Origin: Psilocybe cubensis | Lineage: Eukaryota | Length of the DNA stretch: 64,000 nucleotides | NCBI GenBank assembly: GCA_017499595.2 | Contig: CM039000.1 | Location: 1,984,001-2,048,000 of the forward strand | Direction of reading: 5' to 3' | In this document: in pieces, positions 31,347 through 62,123 of the stretch | Numbering within the stretch: position 1 is the stretch's first letter | Layout of the letters: the number at the start of each line of letters is the position of its first letter | Notes under the pieces: model-generated | The model's input: the letters and a program-made list of their open reading frames with translations, nothing else | Told to the model about the DNA's origin: nothing | Database searches by the model: none | Translations under genes and position numbers: made by a program

Positions 31347-32239
31347 AAATGATATGCCTGGTTTTCGTTTACTGGTATGAGAAGTTACGCGAATGTTACC
31401 GGGAATAGAAATATCCGAGCAAGCAGGCATAGCTGAGTGATTGACCTAAAAAGTCAAGAAGATCCACAGATAAAGTATCGTAAGGGTGAGCGCTGTTGAA
31501 CCCTTGAGTGGTCCAGAAGCTCAATGCTCAAACGCGATCGAAACGGGAAAGAGCTGGAGAAAGACGATTGTCTTGTGTCAGCAGGGTCAACTAGAGGACG
31601 GCCGGTCGAAAAAAATAAAAGGATTAGGTCGGATCGTTGTGGGCGCAAGGCTAATCTGGGTTCCTGGCATCACCAATTCTGGGGCAACATGCAAATCGCC
31701 GAGCAAAAACAAACACCATCACTGTATTAAGGACGCTAGACTCAAGATGGCCAACAGTCAACGCCAATGACAAGAAAATATTTTTTCAGATGACGTGCAA
31801 TCAAAAGCTGTGGTAGACCACGTCGGCGGCACTGCATATTCGTTTGTATCTAAGATAAGTCTTTGACACGGCGCAGCAGTTCTGTGTTACCAAGACATGG
31901 TTTATTTCTGGGAAGTCAACACAGGAAAGTAATCAAAAACGACAATTGATTGGGATGGAGGTCGTGCGAATTTTCAATTTATATTGGCCCTTTCTCCTCC
32001 TGATGAAAGATCCAGTCAACAACGGACCTAAGGCCTTTGAGCACAGATTAAATGGATCTCCACCTCTACCAATCGGTCTCTCGAATAGGACATTCCTCCG
32101 ACAAGGGGTAAAAACATGTATCTCAGGGTACAGTTCCATCCCATTGGTGTCATAAAATGATGTGGCGTAAGCTTTTCTTCAATTTTCTATAAGAGCTAAC
32201 CATACTGTCCTTGTACCTCCAACCCCTCCCGTTTCTCCA

Positions 32240-33733
32240 ATGGACGTCGTCAATGTACTCCAGACACCACCTATCTTCTTTCGTTTGTTTATAAAGCTCG
32301 CATTGTCGTTGTTCAGTTCCACATTCAACCTCAACTACAAAGCTATCCCTGAGAGGCGCCAACAGAGCTCATATGACATCGACCCTCGGACTGGCTTTTT
32401 CCCCCCAAAACCTCTCCAGCGCCTGCCATCGGGCTACTCCATCTGGGAGGATGCTTTGCGCGCCGCGAATGGGAATTTGAGTTTGGGTGAAGACGACTCG
32501 GAAGAAGCCTTGTCCAAACGCGCCTTTGGTGAAAGATGGAGATCGAATATCGCGTCTGTTAGTATATTTTTATCCTCCTTAAATGCACTATTACTTATCG
32601 AACGCGACATTTTCGCCCAGTGGCCCGTGTTGGATTGTACCCCACTACAAACTGATCTCCGTTCTTGTCAGCGCGCGCATATGGTTCTTGCATGGCTCGT
32701 CAATTTCTATGTCCATTCAATGCCTCGTCCTCAAGGAACACCGGCTCTTGTGCCAAAGTCCTTGGCAGTTCCATTGACTCAAATTTCTCGTCACCTTGCA
32801 ATGGCTCCTGTCCTTACGTTCGCCGACACAGTGCTGTGGAATTGGGAGCTTGTAAATCCTGCGGAACCCCTATCCATGGACAACATTCGATTCGTTAATC
32901 TGTTCTCAGGGACCGATGACGAAAGGAATTTTTATCAATCTTCTGCGAGGGCCGAGCTGCGCGGGGTAGAGATTTTGCGGATAATTGATGACTATACATC
33001 CCATCCCAATATTAGAGACCTGACCGCCATTTCAAAAGTCGCTCGAGATCTCACTCGTCTTTCGGGGATTGTGGATTCGATCAGTGAAATTATTCAATCT
33101 GTGCGTCCTAATTGCGACCCTCACGTTTTCTATTGGGACATTCGTCCATGGTTCGAAGGCAGCGACGCGAAAGGACCTACGGAGCCAGGTTGGATCTACG
33201 AAGGAGTGGATGTATCTGAACCACTTGACCTCAGCGGACCATCCGCTGGTCAGAGCAGTGTCATGCACGCTCTTGACATTTTTCTGGATATTGATCATAA
33301 ACTTGGCCAAAGACGTTACCCTGCGCCTTCATCAGAGAATAAGCGCGCCGATCTAGGCTTCATGGAGAGGATGAGGCGATATATGCCAGGAAAACACCAG
33401 GACTATCTTCGACAACTTTCCTCGATCTCTCTAACCGTACGCGAAGTGGCACGATCGACTCCTGCTCTTCGTGATCCTTACGACAATGCCGTCACAGCGT
33501 TGAAGCGCTTACGAGACCAGCATATACGTATTGCTTGCCTGTATATTGTGACAATGTCTCGATCCACCCCAGGTTCACGGGCAGGATGTCCAGCAAGTGC
33601 AATGATTGAACGACTCCAAGCTGCTAGGGCGTCCGGGAAGGGGCCCGTTCGGGGGACAGGGGGCAATGAATTGTCTGTTCTCCTCAAGGCGGGGAGGGAT
33701 GCTACTCGGCGGGCAATCTTGAAGTCCAATTGA
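32240..33733 (+). CDS. Indoleamine 2,3-dioxygenase
   Basis: TGFFPP, RAHMVLAWL, DTVLWNW, FYWDIRPW, GPSAGQSS, MRRYMPG, proximal His in RDQH, RGTGG. One probable in-frame 63-nt intron at 32558-32620. Confidence 0.95.
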   Translation: MDVVNVLQTPPIFFRLFIKLALSLFSSTFNLNYKAIPERRQQSSYDIDPRTGFFPPKPLQRLPSGYSIWEDALRAANGNLSLGEDDSEEALSKRAFGERWRSNIASVSIFLSSLNALLLIERDIFAQWPVLDCTPLQTDLRSCQRAHMVLAWLVNFYVHSMPRPQGTPALVPKSLAVPLTQISRHLAMAPVLTFADTVLWNWELVNPAEPLSMDNIRFVNLFSGTDDERNFYQSSARAELRGVEILRIIDDYTSHPNIRDLTAISKVARDLTRLSGIVDSISEIIQSVRPNCDPHVFYWDIRPWFEGSDAKGPTEPGWIYEGVDVSEPLDLSGPSAGQSSVMHALDIFLDIDHKLGQRRYPAPSSENKRADLGFMERMRRYMPGKHQDYLRQLSSISLTVREVARSTPALRDPYDNAVTALKRLRDQHIRIACLYIVTMSRSTPGSRAGCPASAMIERLQAARASGKGPVRGTGGNELSVLLKAGRDATRRAILKSN

Positions 33734-37141: not shown

Positions 37142-40100
37142 ATGCCAGTCTCCACTAATTCGCGCTATGAACCGCCCCTCAGCCCGCCCTCAATGATTTC
37201 TACGCCATCGAGATCAAGTTATTATCGCTCTCAGAACAACAGTACTAGCTATACTCCAACAATTACCTCAGGAGGCATTGCACAACAAAAACTAAATGTC
37301 GTTACCAGAGTGGCAATCGAAGGGAAAGCTAAGCAAGGACAAGACGGTGCCTCCGTCAAAATGTTTCTCAAGGTCTTTAATCTTTTGCTACGTATTCCTT
37401 GTTTATTGAACGTTTCAATACCATCGTGTATAGATTTGTGTGCCTTTGGATTTAGTGACTCCTGGATCAACGATTCCTCTTTTTCCTGGTTAGCAACTAC
37501 TTGTTAAGAAGCTATGTATTTTTGACTTAACCTCTCTCTGCTTAGAGGAAAACGTGAAAATCCATACCTCTCAGGTCCATCCACTCGACCACAACGGCGT
37601 ACCATACAACTTTTCATCAACGGTTTTCCCTCTGCTTCACAATGCTGCCCGGGCGTTGAGTCTCCCTCAACGATCACATGAAGACTTCAACACAGTTGTT
37701 GGATCTTCCAATGTAAATGGAACTTCTACTTCCAATCGTTCACAACATGTTGAAATTGGTGATAAAGCTGCACCAATTGATGCACAATATACTGGCCACA
37801 TTCTTGTCAGCGGATACAGCATATCATTTGTTCTTCCCAGAATTTTTCTTCCACGAAGAAAAGATTTTAGTCAACTGGACACGGGAGGGACACCCGCAAG
37901 TAGAAGAAGACCTTCTATCGGAGAGAGAAACCAAGCCTTGTTTATGGCTGTCATCGATATGTGGGTCCCTTTCTTGGGCAAACCACCACGCTCGCCCTAC
38001 CTGGTATGGACTCGACATTGGTATTGTATTAGCTTCATCCTTACCAGCGCCTTTGTTATAGCTTTCTATTCCTACGCCACGCTGTCTACAAAACTACATC
38101 AGACTCCGTATTTTTCCTCCCCCGGTAAATAACTCCTCCTCATTTGCGTCACTTTCTTCGATGGAAGATGAAAATGCTGCGTGGGACCTCACGTCTGAGC
38201 CTCACGTTACACGGACCCTGTCAAAACCCTCTCGTTCAAGCTCTTACAACAACTTTGCCGACGATGAATCCTCTGATTCTTCCGTGCCACTTACGACAGA
38301 CGCTTGCGTGATTCAGGGTAGCTTCCCCAGTGCAGAGCGAATACGGATACGGTGGGCTAAGCCTACGAAGTATCTGGATATACCAGGTGATGAAAGTGGT
38401 CGAAGAAGGGTTGGGGTCGAAGAAAGTAAGGGAGAGATGACCTGTACAATACGCGGAAAGGGAACAAGTGCAGGTAATCCTCAAGCTGAAGGTGTTCTGA
38501 TGCACGTTGAATATAAAGGGCATTGCCAGGGCATATGGTTTGCTGGCGTTGCAACATTACTTGGTCTTGATGTTGGTCTTGAGGCTAAAGGGTCTGACGT
38601 ATCATGGCCTGACGGATATCCAAGCAGATGGGAGGTTTCCGGGGCGACTGGATTTACTGGATTTGGGACGGGTTCTTCAAGTGAACCTTCCACGATCAAT
38701 TCTAGGACAATATCCTCGGATTCAACTGACTCTCGCCATAAGCCATTACTCTCCTCTCCCAGTGGCCTGATACAAGATTCTGCGCCAGGCTTCTTAAATG
38801 CGAAAACTGATTCATCGGCCTCCTCATTGTTGCGTGCCCCACTTCCTATGTCTAATGTCGGCGAATATTCTTTCGAAGGTTCTGCAGCTACCTTGAACCT
38901 GTCACCTTCCGAAATATCTTCGGTAGCATCAATGACAACACCATCGCATCCTACCTCATCGCAAAGTGTGCTTAAGCCGGTGCATCCTGGCTCTCCTATA
39001 ACGCTCCATTTGAATATGAATGAATTACAAGCCCCTGCCAAAAACATGTTCACTTTTACTATATCCGGTACCATTCTCATAACTTCAAGGACAGTCTTGG
39101 CGCGCCTTAATGGGCCCATCCATGGAAAGTCTACGGAGTTGGAGCCCATAGTGTTGCCCCGGTTCACTGTTCTAGCCGCTGACACCGAGTCGACGTCAAT
39201 TCTAATACGAAATGAAGTCGACGGTGCATCCGTCGAGGTGTTTAACCCAACGGGGGACATTCAACACGATCCACAAACCAGGAAAACGGTACTCCAGAAG
39301 AATGCGTTCACAAAGTGTACCGAGGATGGTACTAGGATCGCACTCAAATTCTTTGACACTCTCTACCCTGGCAACGTGAATAATTCACGACCTCACGCCC
39401 GTCCGCGGACGCCTAGCAATAACATGTCCCACCTTTCGTCCAATTCTTCCAATCCGCGAAAAACCCATCTCACACGCAGTAAACCTGATGGTCCCTGCAT
39501 CATTCCTTCAGTAAAAGTGACGGTGACAGCGCTTGCACCCGATATCAACAATCTCCCTACTGGATACGCTGTCAGGGTCATCTTACAGACACCACCGTTA
39601 GTAGATTCCGAGTGGCTTCATTTTGGGATAGCACACGGGTTACCAGATACTGATCACATCGCAAATTCTGGGGAAACAAATTTTGACGGCAAGGTGCACA
39701 CTATCTGCGCTAGCCTTGACGGCGTCCCTGTAAGATCGGAAACCACAAAACTAGCACAGGTAGCTACAGACGTCACGGCTGGAGCTGCTCCTTTTGAGGA
39801 GCTAAGCGGGAAGGAATGGATATGCTGGGTGAAGGTCCACACTGGGTCGTCAATTGGCGGGACATTGGTGATAGATTATATCGTGAAAGAGGCCCATGTG
39901 TCTTCTGGAAACTACTCTAGAAATTTGAAGGACGTACCGGCACTGGAAATTCTCCTCCCGACTTTCTTCGTGTCCATCGCACGATTAGAAGTGTATGTGG
40001 ACCTTATCCCCGGTAAGCTTCGACTTTCTCATGTTTCAAAATCCTATTCAACTCAAGTTTACTTAGGCCTCGATATCAGCTCATTGCGTTCCAATTTTGA

Positions 40101-40761
40101 TTATCATTATGCATTGCCAGATGGAAATCGGTTGCTGCGTTACTCGGTGAACGAATATAATAAACCACAACTGTTGCTTATGGTCCGCAAATCTATGGCC
40201 AAGCAAGGCCCTCTTCGTCAGAACTGGTACTTCATCATCACATGGTCTATCCTTTTGGTTGTATTTTCTCTCCTTTATCAGTTAATGGCTGATGTGCACC
40301 GATTGCAAATAATCAGTGTTGGCTATTTCGGTAAGATCGAGTCATGGTCGGATATCCCTGTTGTGACTGTCACTTCAACTGTCTACGCCAGCACCAGTAC
40401 CCGATATCACGGCGAGCCGCCCATAGAAACACCGGATGTGATATCTAGAGTCGCGCCAGCCAGCGCTGAACCACCTCCAAATTTGAACCCGATATCTACT
40501 CAGTTGGCAAATGATGCTATCATCACGACTACACAAATGACACAAAAATCTCACGACGACACCTCCGACAGTCATCCTAAAAATTCTGTACCACCATCTA
40601 CCCCAGAAGCATATGGCTTGTTGCCGGTTGAGAACAATTTCTCTTTCGAATGGGTTAAAGGCGGTGCTTTCAAGCATGTCCTACAAGAGTTAGTCGCCAC
40701 AATGGAGGTCGTCTGGGACGTCTTCCGAAAAGTCTATCACTATCCCCTTGATCCTCCATAA
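37142..40761 (+). CDS. Large uncharacterised single-pass membrane protein (roughly 1100 aa)
   Basis: Four short introns at the 5' end, then an 866-codon ORF; one hydrophobic segment WYFIITWSILLVVFSLLYQL, an S/T/P-rich stretch and C-terminus WDVFRKVYHYPLDPP*. Confidence 0.75.
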
Positions 40762-52607: not shown

Positions 52608-54105
52608 TCATGGCGAAGTAGATTCTTGCGGAGGATCTACAAATACTCGCAGCGCGTTTTTGAAACGGGGATCCCAAGTGACACTGGTGGATGGTTTGAT
52701 AATATTCCAGCCGTCTACGTCATTGCGCCATCTTCGTTCCTTTTTTAATCTTTCTGCACGAAGCTCGACCTCTGTAGGAGGTGGGTTCTCAAGCTCAGCT
52801 TTTGTGGGCTCTCGTGTGCCCCGCGCAAGTTCGCGTGCTGTTGCCAGTTTGCCGGCAAGAGATTCGTAATACTTTGTCCTGATTTCTTCAATATCTTTAG
52901 GGAGGTCCTTTAACGATTTTTTGTAGTAGCTTTCGGCCTGTTTGTCAAAGTCCAAATCTCCAAGATTCTGCTCTTGAATATCTCCATCGGGAGCCGCCTG
53001 TTGGTCTAAGCTTTCTGGAACCTCTATCGGACGTGAAATATTCATAACCAGTCGATATCCCGCCTGTGCTCCAGCAAGAACTTTATGCCGCTGGTTGAAA
53101 AAATCCCAAATCATGAGTGGGATTTGAGAGATGCCAATGTAGTCCGTGAATGACACAAGTAATAACGGAGGAAGCGGTGGAATGACAGCTGGAACATCGG
53201 TCGGTAAAGAAGGACTTTGCTGCGAGTTTTGAGCAAAGGAAGGTCGAATTTGCAGCGGTGAAAAGACGGGTGATGTCTGAGCAGACAAAGGCGGGGACTT
53301 CTTCGATGGTTCGTCCATGTCAAAGTCTCTCGGGTCTTCAGGTTCGTCAAAGTGACTGTCGTTCTCTAGTATACGTGCCAGTTCCTCGTCCTCGTCCACC
53401 TTTTCCAGGCCGGAAGTCCAACCTTTCTTGAGCCCGGCCATAAATTCTTTGAAAGTAGGACGGCCGATAATCACAATGCCACCTTCAAGTTCATTCTGAC
53501 GTCTGACAGCCGGGGACCTGTATGTTGGAAGCGCCTTCCTCACGTCCGAGTCTATGTCGATTTCCAGGTCAAGTCGTCTTCTTAACCTAATGTCTTCTGC
53601 AACACGTTTCATAATTTCACCATGCCGCTTTCCGGGAATCATTTCATAGTCAACACCAGCAGCAATAAGTATGGGCTGTTTAGTTGTGAATACAAGTGCA
53701 CAAGTTAGCTGGTCTGATTGTAATACAAGAAGGCATTCCGACCTTGACATACTTCCGGAAGTACCTGAGGCTCTGATCATAGTCCTCATCCGCCGGCCAC
53801 TTCGAACCATACACAGTAACCTTGCGCAGGACTTCAAACGGGTCGGCTGGTACCTCTGAAAGGTGCTTCACTTTTTCGACGTACTCCTGACGGATTTGCT
53901 TGCATCTCCGTCGGTCATACGCATACAGCCCGACAACTGACGAGGTGACGGAGAGAAATATGAGCCAGTTTCTGGAAGGCAATTTCGGGCGCTTGTCGAG
54001 CCATGACGGTGGGATGCCTGTGTATGAAAGGACGGTCCTCACACCCGACCTTCTGACAGGAGGGACAAAAGAGTTGTCCGAGGGTGGTGGTGGAGGAGTT
54101 GACAT
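52608..54105 (-). CDS. TIM54: Mitochondrial inner membrane translocase subunit Tim54
   Basis: KLPSRNWLIF..YDRR, FRKYVKPILIAAGVDYE, IGRPTFKEFMAGL, FFNQRH; one intron around 53678-53742. Confidence 0.93.
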
Positions 54106-55290: not shown

Positions 55291-57283
55291 TCACTCTCGA
55301 TCCGAAGCTTTCTCCAGTTGCTGTCGTTTCCGTGAACCACCCCTTGAATAAAGTCAGTAAAACCCCAAGTCAGAAATGCATAGGCACTCACACCCCAGTA
55401 TCCAAGCCCCTCTTTTTACCCGTCTTTGCCTCATCCAGGAATTGGTTCAGGCCGAAGACATCACCCGTGTCCTTCTCAAATTGCACTGGTCCTTCCCTGA
55501 CTTCCTGGTCTTTAGCACCTTCGAAGCCGATTCGTGCCTGACCAAGGTTAAATCGATCATTATCGAGCGCTTTCCCTATGCCTTCGTCTGTACCGCCACC
55601 GAACGAATCTTCATTACCCTCCTCAATATTACCTCTAGCTTTGTAAATTGCGGCGGCAGCAGTCGAGCCGTGGAACAGAGGTCGGTCGTACAGATTGTAA
55701 GAATCATCGTCTGCAAAGTTACCAGACAATGATTCTTGATTGAACAAGCGCGAATCTAGCATTGATTCCTTTGACAAGGTCGGTTTTGCAAGACCCAGTG
55801 CGACCTTCTCTGAAATATCGCGATTCTGTTGCCGAGCGAGCATCTTGGCACGTTGTTCCTGGCCCATGTTGTTCATCCTCAACTCTCGTTCGCGTTCTCT
55901 CCTCTTTTCCTGCCTCATTTCGTCACGGATTCTGCGGGCCTCTTCATCTTCAGCGCTATCTTCAGAAGCATCTGATTCGTCACCACTTTCGCTGTCACTT
56001 CCATAGGCAGCTAATGACGACTTCATAGCAGCTTGGGATTGCGCAGTTGGCTTCTGTGGAACACCTCCACGTTCCTCCCGTGCTCTCTGGGCCAAAAGAC
56101 GAAGTGTTTCTTCCTTGGATTCCTTCTCCTTTTGTGCAAGTTTTTGTTGCATCAAAGATCGTTGGCGCACTTCCTCCCTTGCATGTCGGTCTGCAACAAA
56201 CAAAGCTTCGGAAAACTTTGCAAAGTTGTCGTTGATATGAATCTGCAGCATAGTTTGTGAGCTGTACGAAAGTGTGTAAAGGCAAATAGCTTACATCTTG
56301 TAAACCTCTTCCATCGGCAGCGAGACGCTTGTCAAGAGGGATAGTAAAACCTTTGTTATTCTTCCAATTTGAGATACACGGAGGAATCATCCATTCTTTT
56401 TGCTCTGCGGCCGTAGCCTTTCGGGGAGGGCTTCGCAATACAGGAGGAGGCGGACTGGGTGGTCCTCGAGGAATCTTCTTGTGTTTGAACCTGGGAGGCT
56501 CCAAAGGGTCTTCAACTACTTCCGACATTTTGATTATGCGCTGCTTTAAAGCACCCTGACCATTCTGCTGCCCAGGAGTATACCGAATAAATGATGTCTT
56601 TCCCTGACTGTCCGGGACGTTTTTGGGCTGCGCAGCCTTGATTTTACCATTGACCAACTTTTCAAGGGCCAGACGAGTTTTTTCAGCAGTTTCCTGAACT
56701 TCTTCCTCGGAGGGGCGTTCCATGACCTTGTCTTTATCATCTAAATCCTTCCTATGCGCAAGAGGCACTAGATCCTTGAACTGGGATTGGACCTTCTTCC
56801 CTTCGCGCTGCCCTTGCTGGGCAATAGCATCATATCGGACATTTCCTTCGCTATCGACTTGTAATGCAAGAGTGTTTCCAGATGATGCCTGAGTAAAATG
56901 CCTAAGAAACAGCCAGATATGATGGATGTAGCTGAACGTACCTGCTTCTTACCCATCCCTAGAGGATACTGAGCAACATGACATTCAGGGTAAGCACCAC
57001 CGTCGCCTAAATCAAGTTTAGCACAAGAACGTGAATGAACTCTTGAGCAGTGTACGTACCGAAATCCTCTAACGAAGATGGTTTCCATCCTATTCGTTGA
57101 CCATAGGGTGGGACGACTGCTCGGGTAATGACAGTGGTGGATTGAGAAATAACCTGCTTTGGGATATCTTCTTCGTCATCTGAGACGGCAGGGGCGTGTA
57201 CAGGTTGTGGTAGTAAACTGCCATTGATAAGCTTGCGTTTACATATGCCATTAACAGGGAACTTACGAAGCCAAGGCAGCCAT
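55291..57283 (-). CDS. PRP45: Pre-mRNA splicing factor Prp45/SKIP (SNW domain)
   Basis: FGDGGAYPECHVAQYPL, DPLEPPRFKHKKIPRGPPSPP, WMIPPCISNWKNNKGFTIPLDKRLAADGRGL, RDISEKVALG, DSRLFNQ, GPVQFEKD. Confidence 0.97.
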
Positions 57284-57763
57284 GGTAGATGATAGAATAG
57301 AGAGCAATTACAAGCAGGAACTTCAAAGGTGCTGACTGGATTCTTTGTTTGTCCGTGTTATATTCTAAAGAACATGGACAAATACCCAAATTGGCATGTG
57401 CCATGGAGAGAGCTTCGACACTAAAAATTTATGGTTCACTTTTTAAAACTGAACCTGAAATCTAAACCAAAATATGAACTCGTGATTTTTTCCTGGAGTA
57501 CACATTTTACCCCGAAGTTTAGATTTCTCCCAGGGTTCACATTTATGAAATTCTGCGAGTTCAGATTAAATTTTGGAGTACAGTTTTCAACCTAGAGCCA
57601 CAGTGGGGCACGTGTCCGTCACTAATCACAATGCCACAGTGGGGCACACCTCACCTCGCTTTGAGCTCACCGTTGATCACGATGTGCCATGCAATGGCAC
57701 AGGGCCCCGTCGCAGTTCTTTTTAAGTAGCACATCTGCATAAGTTGTGTTATCTCTTGCCTTC

Positions 57764-58341
57764 ATGTTGTCGCTCTCTTCTCTTGTTGACTGTCTGCACC
57801 GTGATATACTGGACAGCTGCTCTCTTACCGACATAGACCGGTTCATTCGCATATGTTGTAGTCTTTTCTCAGAAATCAAACTATGTGTTAAAGACGTCAA
57901 TCAAGCACCCCATGTCCTCCCGGCATATATCCAAAGTTTGCTGGTTGAGGTTCTCCAGCTCGACAGCCTTCTTGTATCCTATCTATGGAACTCGCTCAAA
58001 GATGTTATCTGGAAAGCTTCACTTGGAAATGATCAATCTGATCACACATCCTTAACTGATAAGGAAAAGGTTTCAATAGATCATGCTGGAAGCAAGCCCA
58101 CAACTCATAAAAATGAGTGCATTGGTACGTAATGTTGCTACCCTTACTGTAACCTGGATCTCATTTTTCTGGTGCAAATCTAGGCTCCGTCATGTTCTAT
58201 CCTCCTATGAGCCATTGCACGGCTTGTAAAGAAAGCCTTTCATCTATTTCCCGCATATCTATTACGTTCTTTTCTTCAAAGAATGGTATACATGCAACGA
58301 AGGGTTACTCAACTTCGCTCAAATGTAAAAAGTGCCGAATA
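57764..58341 (+). pseudogene. 5' fragment of a CxC5/CxC6-type KDZ transposase-associated gene
   Basis: Exon 1 ...RFIRICCSLFSEIKL..PHVLPAYIQSLLVEVL..LWNSLKDVIW; intron 58125-58183; exon 2 FYPPMSHCTAC...ITFFSSKNG...SLKC, resembling the start of the CxC5 cysteine cluster, then truncated. Confidence 0.65.
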
Positions 58342-58620
58342 AGGTGTGTTTGGACTGTTGCCTAGTTTATTGAACGGTAATACTTTATGTGGGGTTCTGG
58401 GCACTTGCAATAGTGCTTGTTGGAATGTTGTTGGTGTGGGAAATGGTAAAACCTCTCCAATACCACGTTCTCGCACCCATCCAACAAAGTGAGAGGTAGG
58501 TGGTGGAGCGGTACATGCTTCGTACCAAAGTCCTTTGTGCTCGGGTACTTTAGTTCCACGACACAGTCGAATGTTGACACTGTAATCACATCCAGGATGC
58601 GGGCAGGGTCTTTGAGCCAT
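58309..58620 (-). pseudogene. 5' fragment of a convergent transposon accessory gene with a GRF-like zinc finger
   Basis: MAQRPCPHPGC...RLCRG...HKGLWYEAC...HFVGW; runs head-on into the CxC5 fragment at about 58330-58340. Confidence 0.5.
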
Positions 58621-59503
58621 GGTAGGTTTCAAGTCTACGTGCAATTTGGACCTGCAAGTAGATGGACGTTGAGAAGAGGGAATAAATAACGACGCCTCAC
58701 ATCATGTATTTAAACCACTGGCCAGTCAATATAGGCATTGTGCCATTTTACTAATGGCACGCGCGTGTCCACGCATGGCTATTGACGCGTTATGGTCACA
58801 TGTGGACAACCGGATAAAAAGTGAACTGTTTAGTAGAAAACTGAACTATGGCACAAAAAGTAAACTTTTACAAAATTTCACCGAGTTCACATTTCAAGTT
58901 CAGATTATTTGGGCAAGTTCACTTTCTGGTTCAGATTTCAAGTTCAGAAAAATATCTGTACTGTAAATTTCTACTGTCGAACTTCTGGCCATGGACGCGA
59001 TTGATTTATACTAACTTACTACGGTCAAAACTTGATATTCCTTATCCTCAACATACAGCAGAATCCTTACCCATAATTCTGAATTCAGGCTTGTCTGGAA
59101 GTAGTGCCACTATACGAGCGTATGATGATATAATCATTCACAAGTTGAAGACCTTGGGGTTTACTTGTTTCCTGTTGTTATAGGCAATGTTCTTCCCTTT
59201 CGAAGAACCAACGCGATACTAAAGTGCTCTCCTGCAATGTTCGTCGCAATGATCTTCGTTCTCTTATGGGTATATTCCAAAACGCCCTTATTTGTATCCT
59301 TGTTCTCCATCATGAGTGCAATCCCAAATGATTAGAGTGACTACTCTTTCATCCCGCTAATCGTATACCCTGATGCAGTTTTCAAGTTGGTGGTTATCAC
59401 GGCAGTCGTAATATATTAACTTATAATTTGTCCTTTAAATCCACTATGGTATCATAAATGTCGTACTTAAATATCAGGATGCATACAAGTCCACAAAGCC
59501 GAA

Positions 59504-61039
59504 TCAAACCTGGACTTCTCTGGCAGATGGCTTTATTTTCAACCACATCCAAGCGCTTAGTCCAAGGAAGAGGTTAAAAACACCAACAATCCCCGAGCCT
59601 GCTCCAAGAAGAGTTATTATCCACCAAGTAATCCCAATGACTCGGTCAAGACTGCGGCCTGTATATCGCTTGAGCGTAGCCTTTGGATCTGCAGTGGGAG
59701 AATACGTAGCCGGCAGAGGGATGGTAGGTATACTTGGAGGTGCATCTTCTGGGCGTGGAGGTAGAAGTAATAACGAAACAATAGGTTTCTTAATAATAAT
59801 ATATATTCAGTCACAGAAGTCCCAGAACAAGTCATAACTGGTGGACATACGTGATCAGAAGTTGTATACGAAGGAATACTGGTATACAACAGGTTGGTAA
59901 TCGACGAATTATTGGGAAGATTCAGGGAGTCTGTATACGTTGCATATAAGATACGGTCCGTCCATGACGGTGTGCGTTTTATGCTGGAGCATTTTGTGAA
60001 GTTATTCTGCAGAAGGGCTGTAATATACTTACCTGTATTTATCGACTTCCCCGAGTTTGTACTTGTAGCTGCATTTAAACTTCCAAAAATCACCCTCATG
60101 GAGGCCAGCGAAGATGGTGCCCTTGCGCTTCTCAATGGTCAATTGGTCGTATTCTTTCAGTTCTTCTCTTATTTTTTCAGACTCTAATGTTTGAGCGAAT
60201 TCGTGAGTAAGGCGCTTAGCATATAATGGATGGGTTTTCGGCAGTTCGATTCGGAAGTTTAGATCCCCTAATAGAAAGAGATGGCTGGTCTCATAGAGTG
60301 TGCTGGGTGATGTTGACAAGGCCTCTGGCGGAAACAACAGAGTGGAAACGATGTGCTTGTAGTCTGCTATCCGATTCTGCAATTTGTGTTGGTGTGCAGT
60401 CAAATGACAGTTCACAAAGCTGGATTTGCGCAACGTATACAGCACATGAGTTAATGAGTCGAATATTGTCAAACAAGCTACACACGTATATGTTTCTCCG
60501 GCAGTACCGTCGGGCCCAGCTACTCGAAAGCGTACGCCGACAGCACCTTTATTGCCCATATATGCGGGTCCGCACCCCGTCCACGAGGTATGTACGTTTG
60601 AAACCTTACGCGCAATGCCATCGTCACGCCCATAAACAAGCAAAGCCACGCCGACGTTCACAACCTTTGCGATGAGAGAGTAAGACTCCTTGTTCGGAGC
60701 GTGGGTCTCAATTTGAGAAAGAATGAGCGTGTCTCTGTCGTTTATGACGGCCTTCGAAAACCCAGAAACTGTGAGAGGTAAGGGAGTCGATGTGAGTCTG
60801 TCCAACAGTTGGACTTATGGGTACATACGTCCAAGGTGCAGAGGAAGTAGTTCCTGGAATCCAACAGCGACAATGTCCGGGGCACGTCTTTCCGGTGAAA
60901 GAAAGTTGGATACTTGCAGCGTTGGAGCCAGCCAATCCACCAAGTCTTGCGGAAGCCCTAGAACACCCTGTAAATTAGTATTATAAGAAGCAATTTGAAC
61001 CAATGTCTGTCCAGAATGAAGATAAGCTTGCTTTGCCAT
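59504..61039 (-). CDS. Inositol polyphosphate 5-phosphatase with C-terminal membrane anchor (Inp54-like)
   Basis: DIVAVGFQE, MGNKGAVGVR, FVNCHLTAH, LFLLGDLNFR, DQL, RTPSWTDRILY, SDHKPI; hydrophobic tail ITWWIITLLGAGSGIVGVFNLFLGLSAWMWL. Confidence 0.92.
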
Positions 61040-61276: not shown

Positions 61277-62123
61277 TTATTTCTTGGAGGGGGGTCCTTG
61301 AGAGATGTTAAGGTCCTTCAACAAGCCAGTACTCAAATCATAGACCCAGCCGTGGATCCAGACATTCTGGCCTTTACGGGTTCCCTTCGTCCAAGCATCG
61401 TTGATAGCATGGGTTTTGGCCAAATTGGCAACCTGGGCCTTGACATTCTCCTCGACCAGGATAGGCATAGCTTCCTCATGCGGAATGGAAGACAGCTGGA
61501 GGGACGCCGCCAGCCTAGTCAAGGGCTCCAGCCAACGATTCAAAGAAGAATCTACGGGTAACGAATCGATCGTAGTGATAGGGCCATCGAGAGACAAGTT
61601 AGGAGATTGAGCGGCCCCGAGACAAGCTGCGGCACCTCCGCATCCTGCATGTCCGACAATGACAACTGCCGGGTGGAAAAAAGAAGGAAAACGGTTGGAA
61701 TAATGGCTAAAAAGTTTAAAAAAGAAAGCAAGCACCGTGTTCAACACCGAGATAGTCGACGGCGTATCTGAGAACAGATAGAACGTTGGTGTCGTCTAAA
61801 TGGAGTTGACTAGACGACTAGATGAGATTTGCACATAACACCGATACACCTTGCTTACTTGGCGATATTCCTATGAACGAAGATGTCTCCCGGCTTAGCA
61901 GCTGTGATGACCGAGTCGGGGACCCTGGAGTCGGCACAACCTATCCAGAGTGTCTGTAGATGACGATGAGCTCCTGGACCAAGACCAGCAAAAAGACGCA
62001 TACATGGGGACTTTGACCCTTGGCGGACTCGCGGAAGAAATCTGGCTGGGTCTTGGAGACTGCCTGTGCCCACTGGACGTTTGCATCGAGCAGACGTTCA
62101 ATAGGGTTGAGGGGCTGGGGCAT
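61277..62123 (-). CDS. NCE103: Beta-class carbonic anhydrase
   Basis: [22 protein letters not shown], zinc ligands in [24 protein letters not shown]. Confidence 0.95.

Follow-up and report, generated by a model that had tools for sequence, protein, structure and literature searches.

We analyzed a stretch of 64,000 nucleotides of the Psilocybe cubensis genome (GenBank assembly GCA_017499595.2, contig CM039000.1, positions 1,984,001 to 2,048,000 of the forward strand). This stretch is called the window here, and all positions are counted from its first letter. The window contains a transposable element of 1580 bp at 57408-58987 (plus strand). The element is probably a recent internal-deletion derivative of a parent transposon that had terminal inverted repeats (TIRs), two genes, and a KDZ-type CxC5/CxC6 transposase. 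Its target-site duplication (TSD), its TIRs, a chance control, and reads and contigs of other samples support its description as a fully delimited, non-autonomous deletion derivative.

Element boundaries

An exact 8-bp duplication, GCCATGGA, is present at 57400-57407 and 58988-58995. The two copies enclose 1580 bp (57408-58987), as an earlier, sequence-only reading of the window had claimed. The ends of the element are imperfect inverted repeats of about 70 bp, where that reading had given about 75 bp. The left repeat lies at 57408-57480 on the plus strand and begins with GAGAGCTTCGACAC. The right repeat lies at 58916-58987 on the minus strand and reads CAGAAGTTCGACAG from the tip inward. A BLAST comparison of the element with the window paired element positions 1509-1574 with window positions 57480-57414, and the arms were 74% identical over 70 columns. 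Their 32-nucleotide core is 84% complementary. The outermost 25 bases contain 19 matches, counted manually on the BLAST printout, and the two arms are 68% identical over the terminal 80 nucleotides. The same comparison retrieved no second copy of the element within the 64-kb window.

A repeat of this kind could arise by chance or as an artefact of assembly. As a control for chance, all 5,690 identical 8-mer pairs that the window contains at a spacing of 300-5000 bp were taken, and the inner 80 bp of each pair were scored for inverted similarity. The GCCATGGA pair scored 32. The next independent pair scored 15, and the mean was 7.1 with a standard deviation of 1.36 (n=5,690 8-mer pairs). The inverted repeats are far above chance. 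Both the element and its empty site were also recovered from independent runs of three further samples. The reads and contigs of these runs refute a chance repeat or assembly artefact, and we give this explanation a negligible probability.

Empty site and other copies

Contigs or raw reads from four public runs (X1, X6, X7, and X12) were placed on window positions 56900-59500. X6 carries the same species label and belongs to a separate study. X1 may come from the source sample of the window. X7 is labelled as another organism.

The empty site was retrieved from X6 and X12. In X6, one contig of 59,046 bp spans 56900-57399 and then continues directly at 58988. The skipped length is 1588 bp, and 8 letters at the joint can be assigned to either flank. 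In X12, 20 raw reads with 17 different starts show the same joint from 57399 to 58988. The empty site carries a single GCCATGGA in both runs. The filled site was retrieved from X1, where it lies within one unbroken contig. X12 is heterozygous at a single-nucleotide polymorphism (SNP) in the flank at 59038 (14 of 31 reads). Since the empty site is retained in other strains, the insertion is recent. It is polymorphic between strains, which shows that the family is still active in Psilocybe cubensis.

Other copies of the element are present in X12. The depth was about 60 to 95 across the whole element versus 30 to 40 on the flanks, or roughly twofold. Reads that join the element to other flanks were found at both tips, with 46 reads at the left tip and 21 plus 44 reads at the right tip. 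The consensus of these flanks agrees only at 0.59-0.68, as in mixtures in which the TSDs of the other copies are unreadable, so several insertion sites are represented. About three quarters of the X12 reads differ from the window at many SNPs. The majority base at 58617 gives Ser2, as in P0002, a protein related to the minus-strand gene that is described below. Multicopy ends and an empty-site allele had both been expected from the sequence alone, and both were recovered.

An older relic of the family is present in X1, X6, and X12. It runs from 57840 to about 58283, is joined there to 58901-58989, and is about 94% alike. Its internal deletion differs from that of the window copy, and its left side is truncated. 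At 90% likeness, X6 contains this relic only and neither the window copy nor a longer copy. Solo right ends are also present in the read and contig data.

X7 contains 57408-57801 without a mismatch. This segment lies beside a different 11-letter flank and has a depth of 2 to 4. It could come from a mixed sample, from another strain, or from transfer.

Deletion junction and longer copies

The element contains the 5' ends of two genes, one on each strand. Both reading frames lose their match at one point, 58340|58341. The sequences that leave behind 58340 comprise 55 X12 reads and 1 X1 contig. They continue the plus-strand gene in frame (..KCRIRYYPTYYVV; ..RYYPTYYVV). The sequences that arrive before 58341 comprise 50 X12 reads and 1 X1 contig. 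They encode ..SCSRSQISVS, which is identical to residues 94-103 of P0002. Past the junction, both frames of the window copy reach a stop within 6 to 10 codons. The plus-strand frame ends in a foreign tail (CVWTVA and a stop; 58341-58365), and so does the minus-strand frame (YSALFTFERS and a stop; 58309-58341).

Both genes run on in the longer copies, and the window copy therefore lacks everything between 58340 and 58341. With one junction from which both genes extend, an even depth across the element in X12, and other flanks at both tips, it has the structure of an internal-deletion derivative that shares its ends with longer copies. The earlier claim of a non-autonomous deletion derivative of a parent element agrees with the longer copies, which continue both genes exactly at the junction. 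Two stop-free gene 5' ends facing each other had also been described correctly. Their meeting point had been placed at about 58335 and is moved here to 58340|58341.

Plus-strand gene

The plus-strand frame starts at an ATG at 57764. Exon 1 extends from 57764 to 58124 and is followed by a predicted GT..AG intron of phase 1 at 58125-58183. Splicing at these sites restores an MFYPP motif that is invariant in the relatives. Exon 2 extends from 58184 to the junction at 58340. It encodes the first half of a CxC5 zinc cluster. Its product matches the Pfam family CxC5 (PF18718) with an E value of 9.5e-07 and 29.4 bits (cut-off, 26.9) over profile positions 3-56 of 117. This match confirms the CxC5-like peptide that had been noticed in the sequence alone. 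An N-terminal CxCn zinc cluster is a hallmark of KDZ transposases; in this gene it is CxC5, and relatives carry CxC5 and CxC6.

The product of exon 1 contains 120 amino acids (aa). Among 1.84 billion representatives, it had 29 relatives at E<=0.001 and 5 at E<=1e-10. The named source organisms of the relatives are Amylostereum, Auriscalpium, Agrocybe, and Pleurotus. When 16 relatives were scanned, 4 contained CxC5 above the cut-off and 1 below it. One contained CxC6 as well, and 2 were plainly unrelated. P0032, a cluster mate, contains both CxC5 and CxC6. P0031 (601 aa) and P0032 (607 aa) are full-length relatives, and each has about 240 more residues after CxC6. When metagenome contigs were scanned with the family alignment, 197 pattern matches yielded three further loci (L001 to L003).

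The exon 1 product forms a helical N-terminal domain (N-domain). Its predicted structure, built from 29 sequences, had a mean predicted local distance difference test (pLDDT) score of 85.6 and a predicted template-modeling score of 0.78. Foldseek retrieved no match to this model at E<=0.001, and its best match was the Sap1 DNA-binding domain at E 4.4. VIA-align retrieved the TALE homeodomain of TGIF1 as its best match, with a Z score of 7.4, a root-mean-square deviation of 2.6, and 64 aligned residues. It also gave many homeodomain and other helix-turn-helix rows at Z 5 to 5.8. A VIA-align Z score below 8 may reflect merely a common helical arrangement. The domain may be helix-turn-helix-like and resembles a homeodomain in the model. 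On this model, the plus-strand stub in the window likely encodes the DNA-binding head of a transposase without the catalytic part.

The remainder of the protein was studied in the full-length relatives. Residues 270-601 of P0031 were submitted to the ESM Atlas with CxC5/CxC6 clusters barred. In the feature search, all named matches were KDZ clusters. The best scored 0.88 with 170 shared features, a result on the border of the tool's reliable range. The structure search retrieved a cluster whose members carry CxC5 (58%), KDZ (25%), and CxC6 (24%). The template-modeling score was 0.59 over 230 aligned residues, the aligned part was PF18758, and the tool graded the match as a lead. Four motifs (VV[TV]DG, [YF]D..C, VDVFHFKSKHK..FCQ.HCNP, and NSSAAEQAN) are common to P0031, P0032, and L003, which are the three sequences covering the region. 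These conserved C-terminal motifs may correspond to the acidic triad and the His/Cys motif of a DDE core (D, D, H-H-C, and E, in the order listed). The KDZ label is probable; it draws on CxC5, the 8-bp TSD, the TIRs, and the Atlas lead rather than on a detected KDZ domain.

Other searches with this protein family gave little. A VIA search with the low-confidence model of P0031 retrieved long-helix matches only, at Z of about 5. A sequence search of solved structures with alignment A2 retrieved nothing below E 0.1. No TET/JBP link to the element was found.

Minus-strand gene

The minus-strand frame starts at an ATG at 58620 and has a Cys/His pattern. The stub at 58342-58620 corresponds to residues 1-93 of P0002 and is identical to it at 92 of these 93 residues. 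P0002 is a hypothetical protein of 721 aa from Psilocybe cubensis, as its source names it. A variant of 739 aa is present in the same cluster. The stub matches no Pfam family, and reading it as a zinc finger is plausible. A sequence search of P0002 against solved structures retrieved nothing below E 0.1. The ESM Atlas retrieved unnamed basidiomycete clusters only, with scores of 0.83 and 0.77.

Subterminal repeats and conserved termini

The ends of the element are rich in the motif NTGAAC, counted on either strand. The left subterminal region (57408-57607) contains 5 NTGAAC/GTTCAN motifs, and the right subterminal region (58788-58987) contains 7. The 1180-bp middle contains 1. In the background, 1,241 windows had a mean of 0.38 per 200 bp and no more than 3 in any one. 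The metagenome ends contain 6 (L001) and 4 (L002) per 200 bp. The repeats are likely binding sites of the transposase, as predicted from the sequence.

L001 and L002 each contain a stretch that can be aligned to the tips of the window element, about 350 to 450 bp upstream of a CxC5/CxC6 gene. The terminus starts with GAGAGCTTCGATGT in L001 and with (C)GAGGGCATCGAGAG in L002. Outside the L002 terminus lie host-type genes, namely, a kinase and a JAB/MitMem_reg protein. The proteins of L001 and L002 are only about 35% identical to the exon 1 product, and their terminal 80 nucleotides are 64 to 71% identical to the ends of the window element. These two loci support the view that the CxC5/CxC6 gene and these ends belong together. 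The ends at L001 148-350 and L002 5604-5800 are unusually conserved for such distant elements.

A palindromic box, GTGCCAT..ATGGCAC, is present in both halves of the element. It has the form GTGCCAT-N3-ATGGCAC at 57684-57700, 64 bp upstream of the plus-strand start codon, and GTGCCAT-N7-ATGGCAC at 58740-58760, 120 bp upstream of the minus-strand start codon. The 64-kb window contains 2 matches to the box, both inside the element, with 0.01 expected. L001 to L003 contain none. The X12 reads have small indels in the spacer of the right palindrome. The box may be a control element shared by the two genes. An exact 15-nucleotide direct repeat, GCCACAGTGGGGCAC, is also present upstream of the plus-strand gene at 57597-57611 and 57633-57647, 36 bp apart.

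The ends also resemble those of another superfamily. hAT elements have 8-bp duplications, CAG-type tips, and subterminal repeats. The element shares the 8-bp TSD and has subterminal repeats, and both of its tips (CAGAAG on the right, GAGAGC on the left) are similar to the consensus of hAT tips. A non-autonomous hAT element that captured two unrelated gene fragments would have these ends. Against this reading, each fragment has its own start codon and upstream region directly inside an end, both extend in longer copies from one shared junction, and the terminus recurs ahead of a CxC5/CxC6 gene in L001 and L002. Scans of 16 plus 2 relatives gave no hAT dimerisation or BED domain. No hAT transposase family was found in the 16 scanned relatives, nor in P0007, P0031, and P0032 at E<=10. 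A hAT or gene-fragment-capturing element was rejected on the absence of hAT and BED domains in these relatives and on the continuation of the fragments at the shared junction. We regard it as highly improbable.

Origin of the element

The full-length form would contain two convergent genes, each starting about 360 bp inside one end. The left gene would encode a helix-turn-helix-like N-domain, CxC5 and CxC6 zinc clusters, and a C-terminal core, in our reading a divergent DDE transposase of KDZ type. The right gene would encode the 721-aa protein with a Cys/His-rich head. A single deletion at 58340|58341, probably the product of interrupted gap repair following excision, would have taken everything in between and spared the two ends, the two promoters, and two short stubs. 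The 1580-bp copy retained the inverted repeats and the NTGAAC repeats, and for this reason it may have been moved in trans by the transposase of a full-length copy. Insertion would have used a staggered cut of 8 bp, about 117 bp upstream of the ATG of a SNW/SKIP (Prp45-type) gene. The duplication, the inverted repeats, the empty site, the junction, the longer copies, and the CxC5 match are direct observations; we infer that both genes lay on one parent, that the CxC5/CxC6 protein was its transposase, and that the deletion arose in this way.

Several observations weigh against a two-gene parent with this transposase. At E<=10, PF18758 (KDZ) was not detected in P0007, P0031, P0032, or the frames of L003. 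The AlphaFold model of full-length P0031, built from 4 sequences, had a mean pLDDT of 39.8 and did not confirm the catalytic fold independently of the Atlas. The parent's CxC5 gene was not recovered as a protein; exon 1 matched 0 of 154 longer candidates at E<=0.001, and exon 2 matched 0 of 4. In the available text of PMC7641404, the authors report no KDZ transposase near the CxC5/CxC6 open reading frames (ORFs) of Pleurotus. No single parent molecule with both genes was seen in the reads and contigs. Among the X1 contigs, only the one that enters from the flank covers the leftmost 430 bp of the element, and the segments common to the longer copies exceed single-copy depth by only 13 to 19. 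The full-length copy in X1 may have a low share, have a different left end, or have been dropped by the contig builder. Contig builders drop variants, so the X1 coverage does not prove that its full-length copy has another left end. The two genes could come from separate copies, and the deleted interior could have contained a third gene.

Some of these observations would suit a deletion derivative whose CxC5/CxC6 protein serves only as an accessory that binds DNA. The true transposase, a canonical KDZ protein or one of another superfamily, would then lie in the deleted interior or elsewhere. PF18758 has no match in the full-length relatives. In Pleurotus, CxC2 is reported to precede the KDZ transposases, and CxC5/CxC6 never to do so (PMC7641404). 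Against an accessory role, both Atlas searches, by features and by structure, point to KDZ for residues 270-601 of P0031, and all 3 sequences covering the region retain the acidic and His/Cys motifs. The relatives are 600 to 740 aa long, which leaves room for a catalytic core. The 6,792-bp insert of Pleurotus, described below, has a CxC5/CxC6 ORF as its only reported gene (PMC7641404). We consider an accessory role unlikely.

The two halves of the element could instead come from two elements of related families that were joined by recombination. A chimera of this kind would explain why no single parent was seen and why, in the X1 contigs, the left 430 bp looks single-copy and the right part shared. 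The arms are also only 68 to 74% alike. It would not explain the even depth in X12 over the whole element (about 60 to 95, versus 30 to 40 on the flanks). The reads that leave the junction are nearly equal in number on the two sides (55 and 50), and both halves share the NTGAAC repeats and the GTGCCAT..ATGGCAC box. A chimera is very unlikely, and a parent transposon carrying both genes and a KDZ-type CxC5/CxC6 transposase is still the reading that we prefer.

Genomic setting

The element lies between two minus-strand genes. The gene on the left encodes a protein with a SNW/SKIP domain (Pfam E 4e-47) at 55388-56948 and has additional 5' exons. Its ATG is placed at 57283, from which the distance of about 117 bp to the insertion is predicted. 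The gene on the right encodes a phosphatase-type protein of the Exo_endo_phos2 family at 59617-60814.

The window also contains ordinary fungal genes. These encode an indoleamine 2,3-dioxygenase (32171-33733, plus strand), Tim54 (52608-53867, minus strand), a beta-type carbonic anhydrase (61277-61795, minus strand), and ribosomal protein L7/L30 (62600-63238, minus strand). An open frame of 899 aa at 38062-40761 (plus strand) matches no Pfam family at E<=0.01.

Significance

The element supplies exact ends, a target duplication, and candidate binding sites for the CxC5/CxC6 group of mushroom transposons. The CxC5/CxC6 protein of this group had been seen before without being understood. The report on the insertion in the commercial sporeless oyster mushroom, in its available part, could not name the mover (PMC7641404). 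Excision or transposition could be assayed with the 1.6-kb copy, a natural minimal substrate. Beyond its ends, its activity, and this use, the element represents ordinary transposon biology.

We also offer a tentative wider reading, which is less likely than not to hold in full. The CxC5/CxC6 elements might form a separate, unnamed KDZ-related lineage in which the CxC5-CxC6 protein is the transposase. This protein would combine a head resembling a homeodomain with two zinc clusters and a divergent DDE core missed by Pfam KDZ. The lineage would have conserved (C/G)AGRR..TCGA tips, NTGAAC repeats, 8-bp TSDs, and a conserved second gene. It, instead of Copia, would have made the sporeless MSH4 allele of Pleurotus. 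The family might also be damped by convergent transcripts from the facing promoters of the cut-down copy, or by truncated DNA-binding proteins made from them.

Comparison with known systems

Ac/Ds of maize and internally deleted P elements are well-known cases of non-autonomous copies that arose by internal deletion and depend on a full-length element. The window element is like them in having one internal deletion with both ends kept. They belong to other superfamilies, and the deletion in the window differs in leaving two facing stubs with promoters.

No published description of the ends of this family was found in the literature on CxC5/CxC6, KDZ, or Zisupton elements or on Psilocybe cubensis transposons; Repbase lay outside this search. 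The sequence-only reading had assumed that the termini of fungal KDZ elements are poorly defined. This premise is out of date, given Cryptococcus KDZ1-3 (PMC11343200, PMC12810828) and the work of Kojima in 2025 (PMC12730594). The literature already contains KDZ elements that have both 8-bp duplications and inverted repeats.

(a) Cryptococcus KDZ1-3. These elements of Cryptococcus neoformans contain 9 to 11 kb and have 8-bp TSDs and TIRs of 139 to 241 bp. They encode a transposase with CxC1 and PF18758. They were caught moving and carry extra genes of unknown function (PMC11343200, PMC12810828). Shortened non-autonomous KDZ copies were not seen transposing in Cryptococcus, according to the available part of one report (PMC12810828). 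The window element resembles KDZ1-3 in its cut-and-paste mode, 8-bp TSD, TIRs, and N-terminal CxC zinc cluster. It differs in having CxC5 (with CxC6 in relatives), no detected PF18758, TIRs of about 70 bp, and, as a deletion derivative, a length of 1.6 kb.

(b) Zisupton. Zisupton and Dileera-type elements have 8-bp TSDs (PMC12730594). The canonical Zisupton domain set is CxC4, KDZ, and SWIM (PMC11343200). The window element shares with Zisupton the 8-bp TSD, the TIRs, and the occurrence of families in Agaricales, and the Zisupton-1_AuCo consensus also starts with CAGA (PMC12730594). It differs from Zisupton in the strict sense, compared by published description only, in that the relatives of its protein show CxC5/CxC6 and no CxC4 or SWIM. 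The window family may already be filed among the Zisupton families of Repbase.

(c) Kyakuja. These elements have 7-bp TSDs, CA..TG tips, and no TIRs, as described by Kojima in 2025 (PMC12730594). The window element shares with the Kyakuja of Agaricomycetes the superfamily label and the host group. It differs from them in its 8-bp TSD, its TIRs, and its left tip, GAGAGC. With an 8-bp TSD and TIRs, it therefore fits the non-Kyakuja part of KDZ.

(d) Pleurotus poMSH4 insert. In sporeless Pleurotus ostreatus, an insert of 6,792 bp with a CxC5/CxC6 ORF of 739 aa disrupts poMSH4 (PMC7641404). The ORF is multicopy, with 44 to about 60 copies of 660 to 739 aa (PMC7641404). The available text of the report mentions no TSD or TIR for the insert, and its authors suspected a Copia retrotransposon (PMC7641404); in both respects the insert is unlike the window element. 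It is like the window element in being multicopy and in having a CxC5/CxC6 ORF as its only reported gene (PMC7641404), and its size fits that expected of the parent. The likeness suggests that Pleurotus-type CxC5/CxC6 inserts may be autonomous TIR transposons of the window family.

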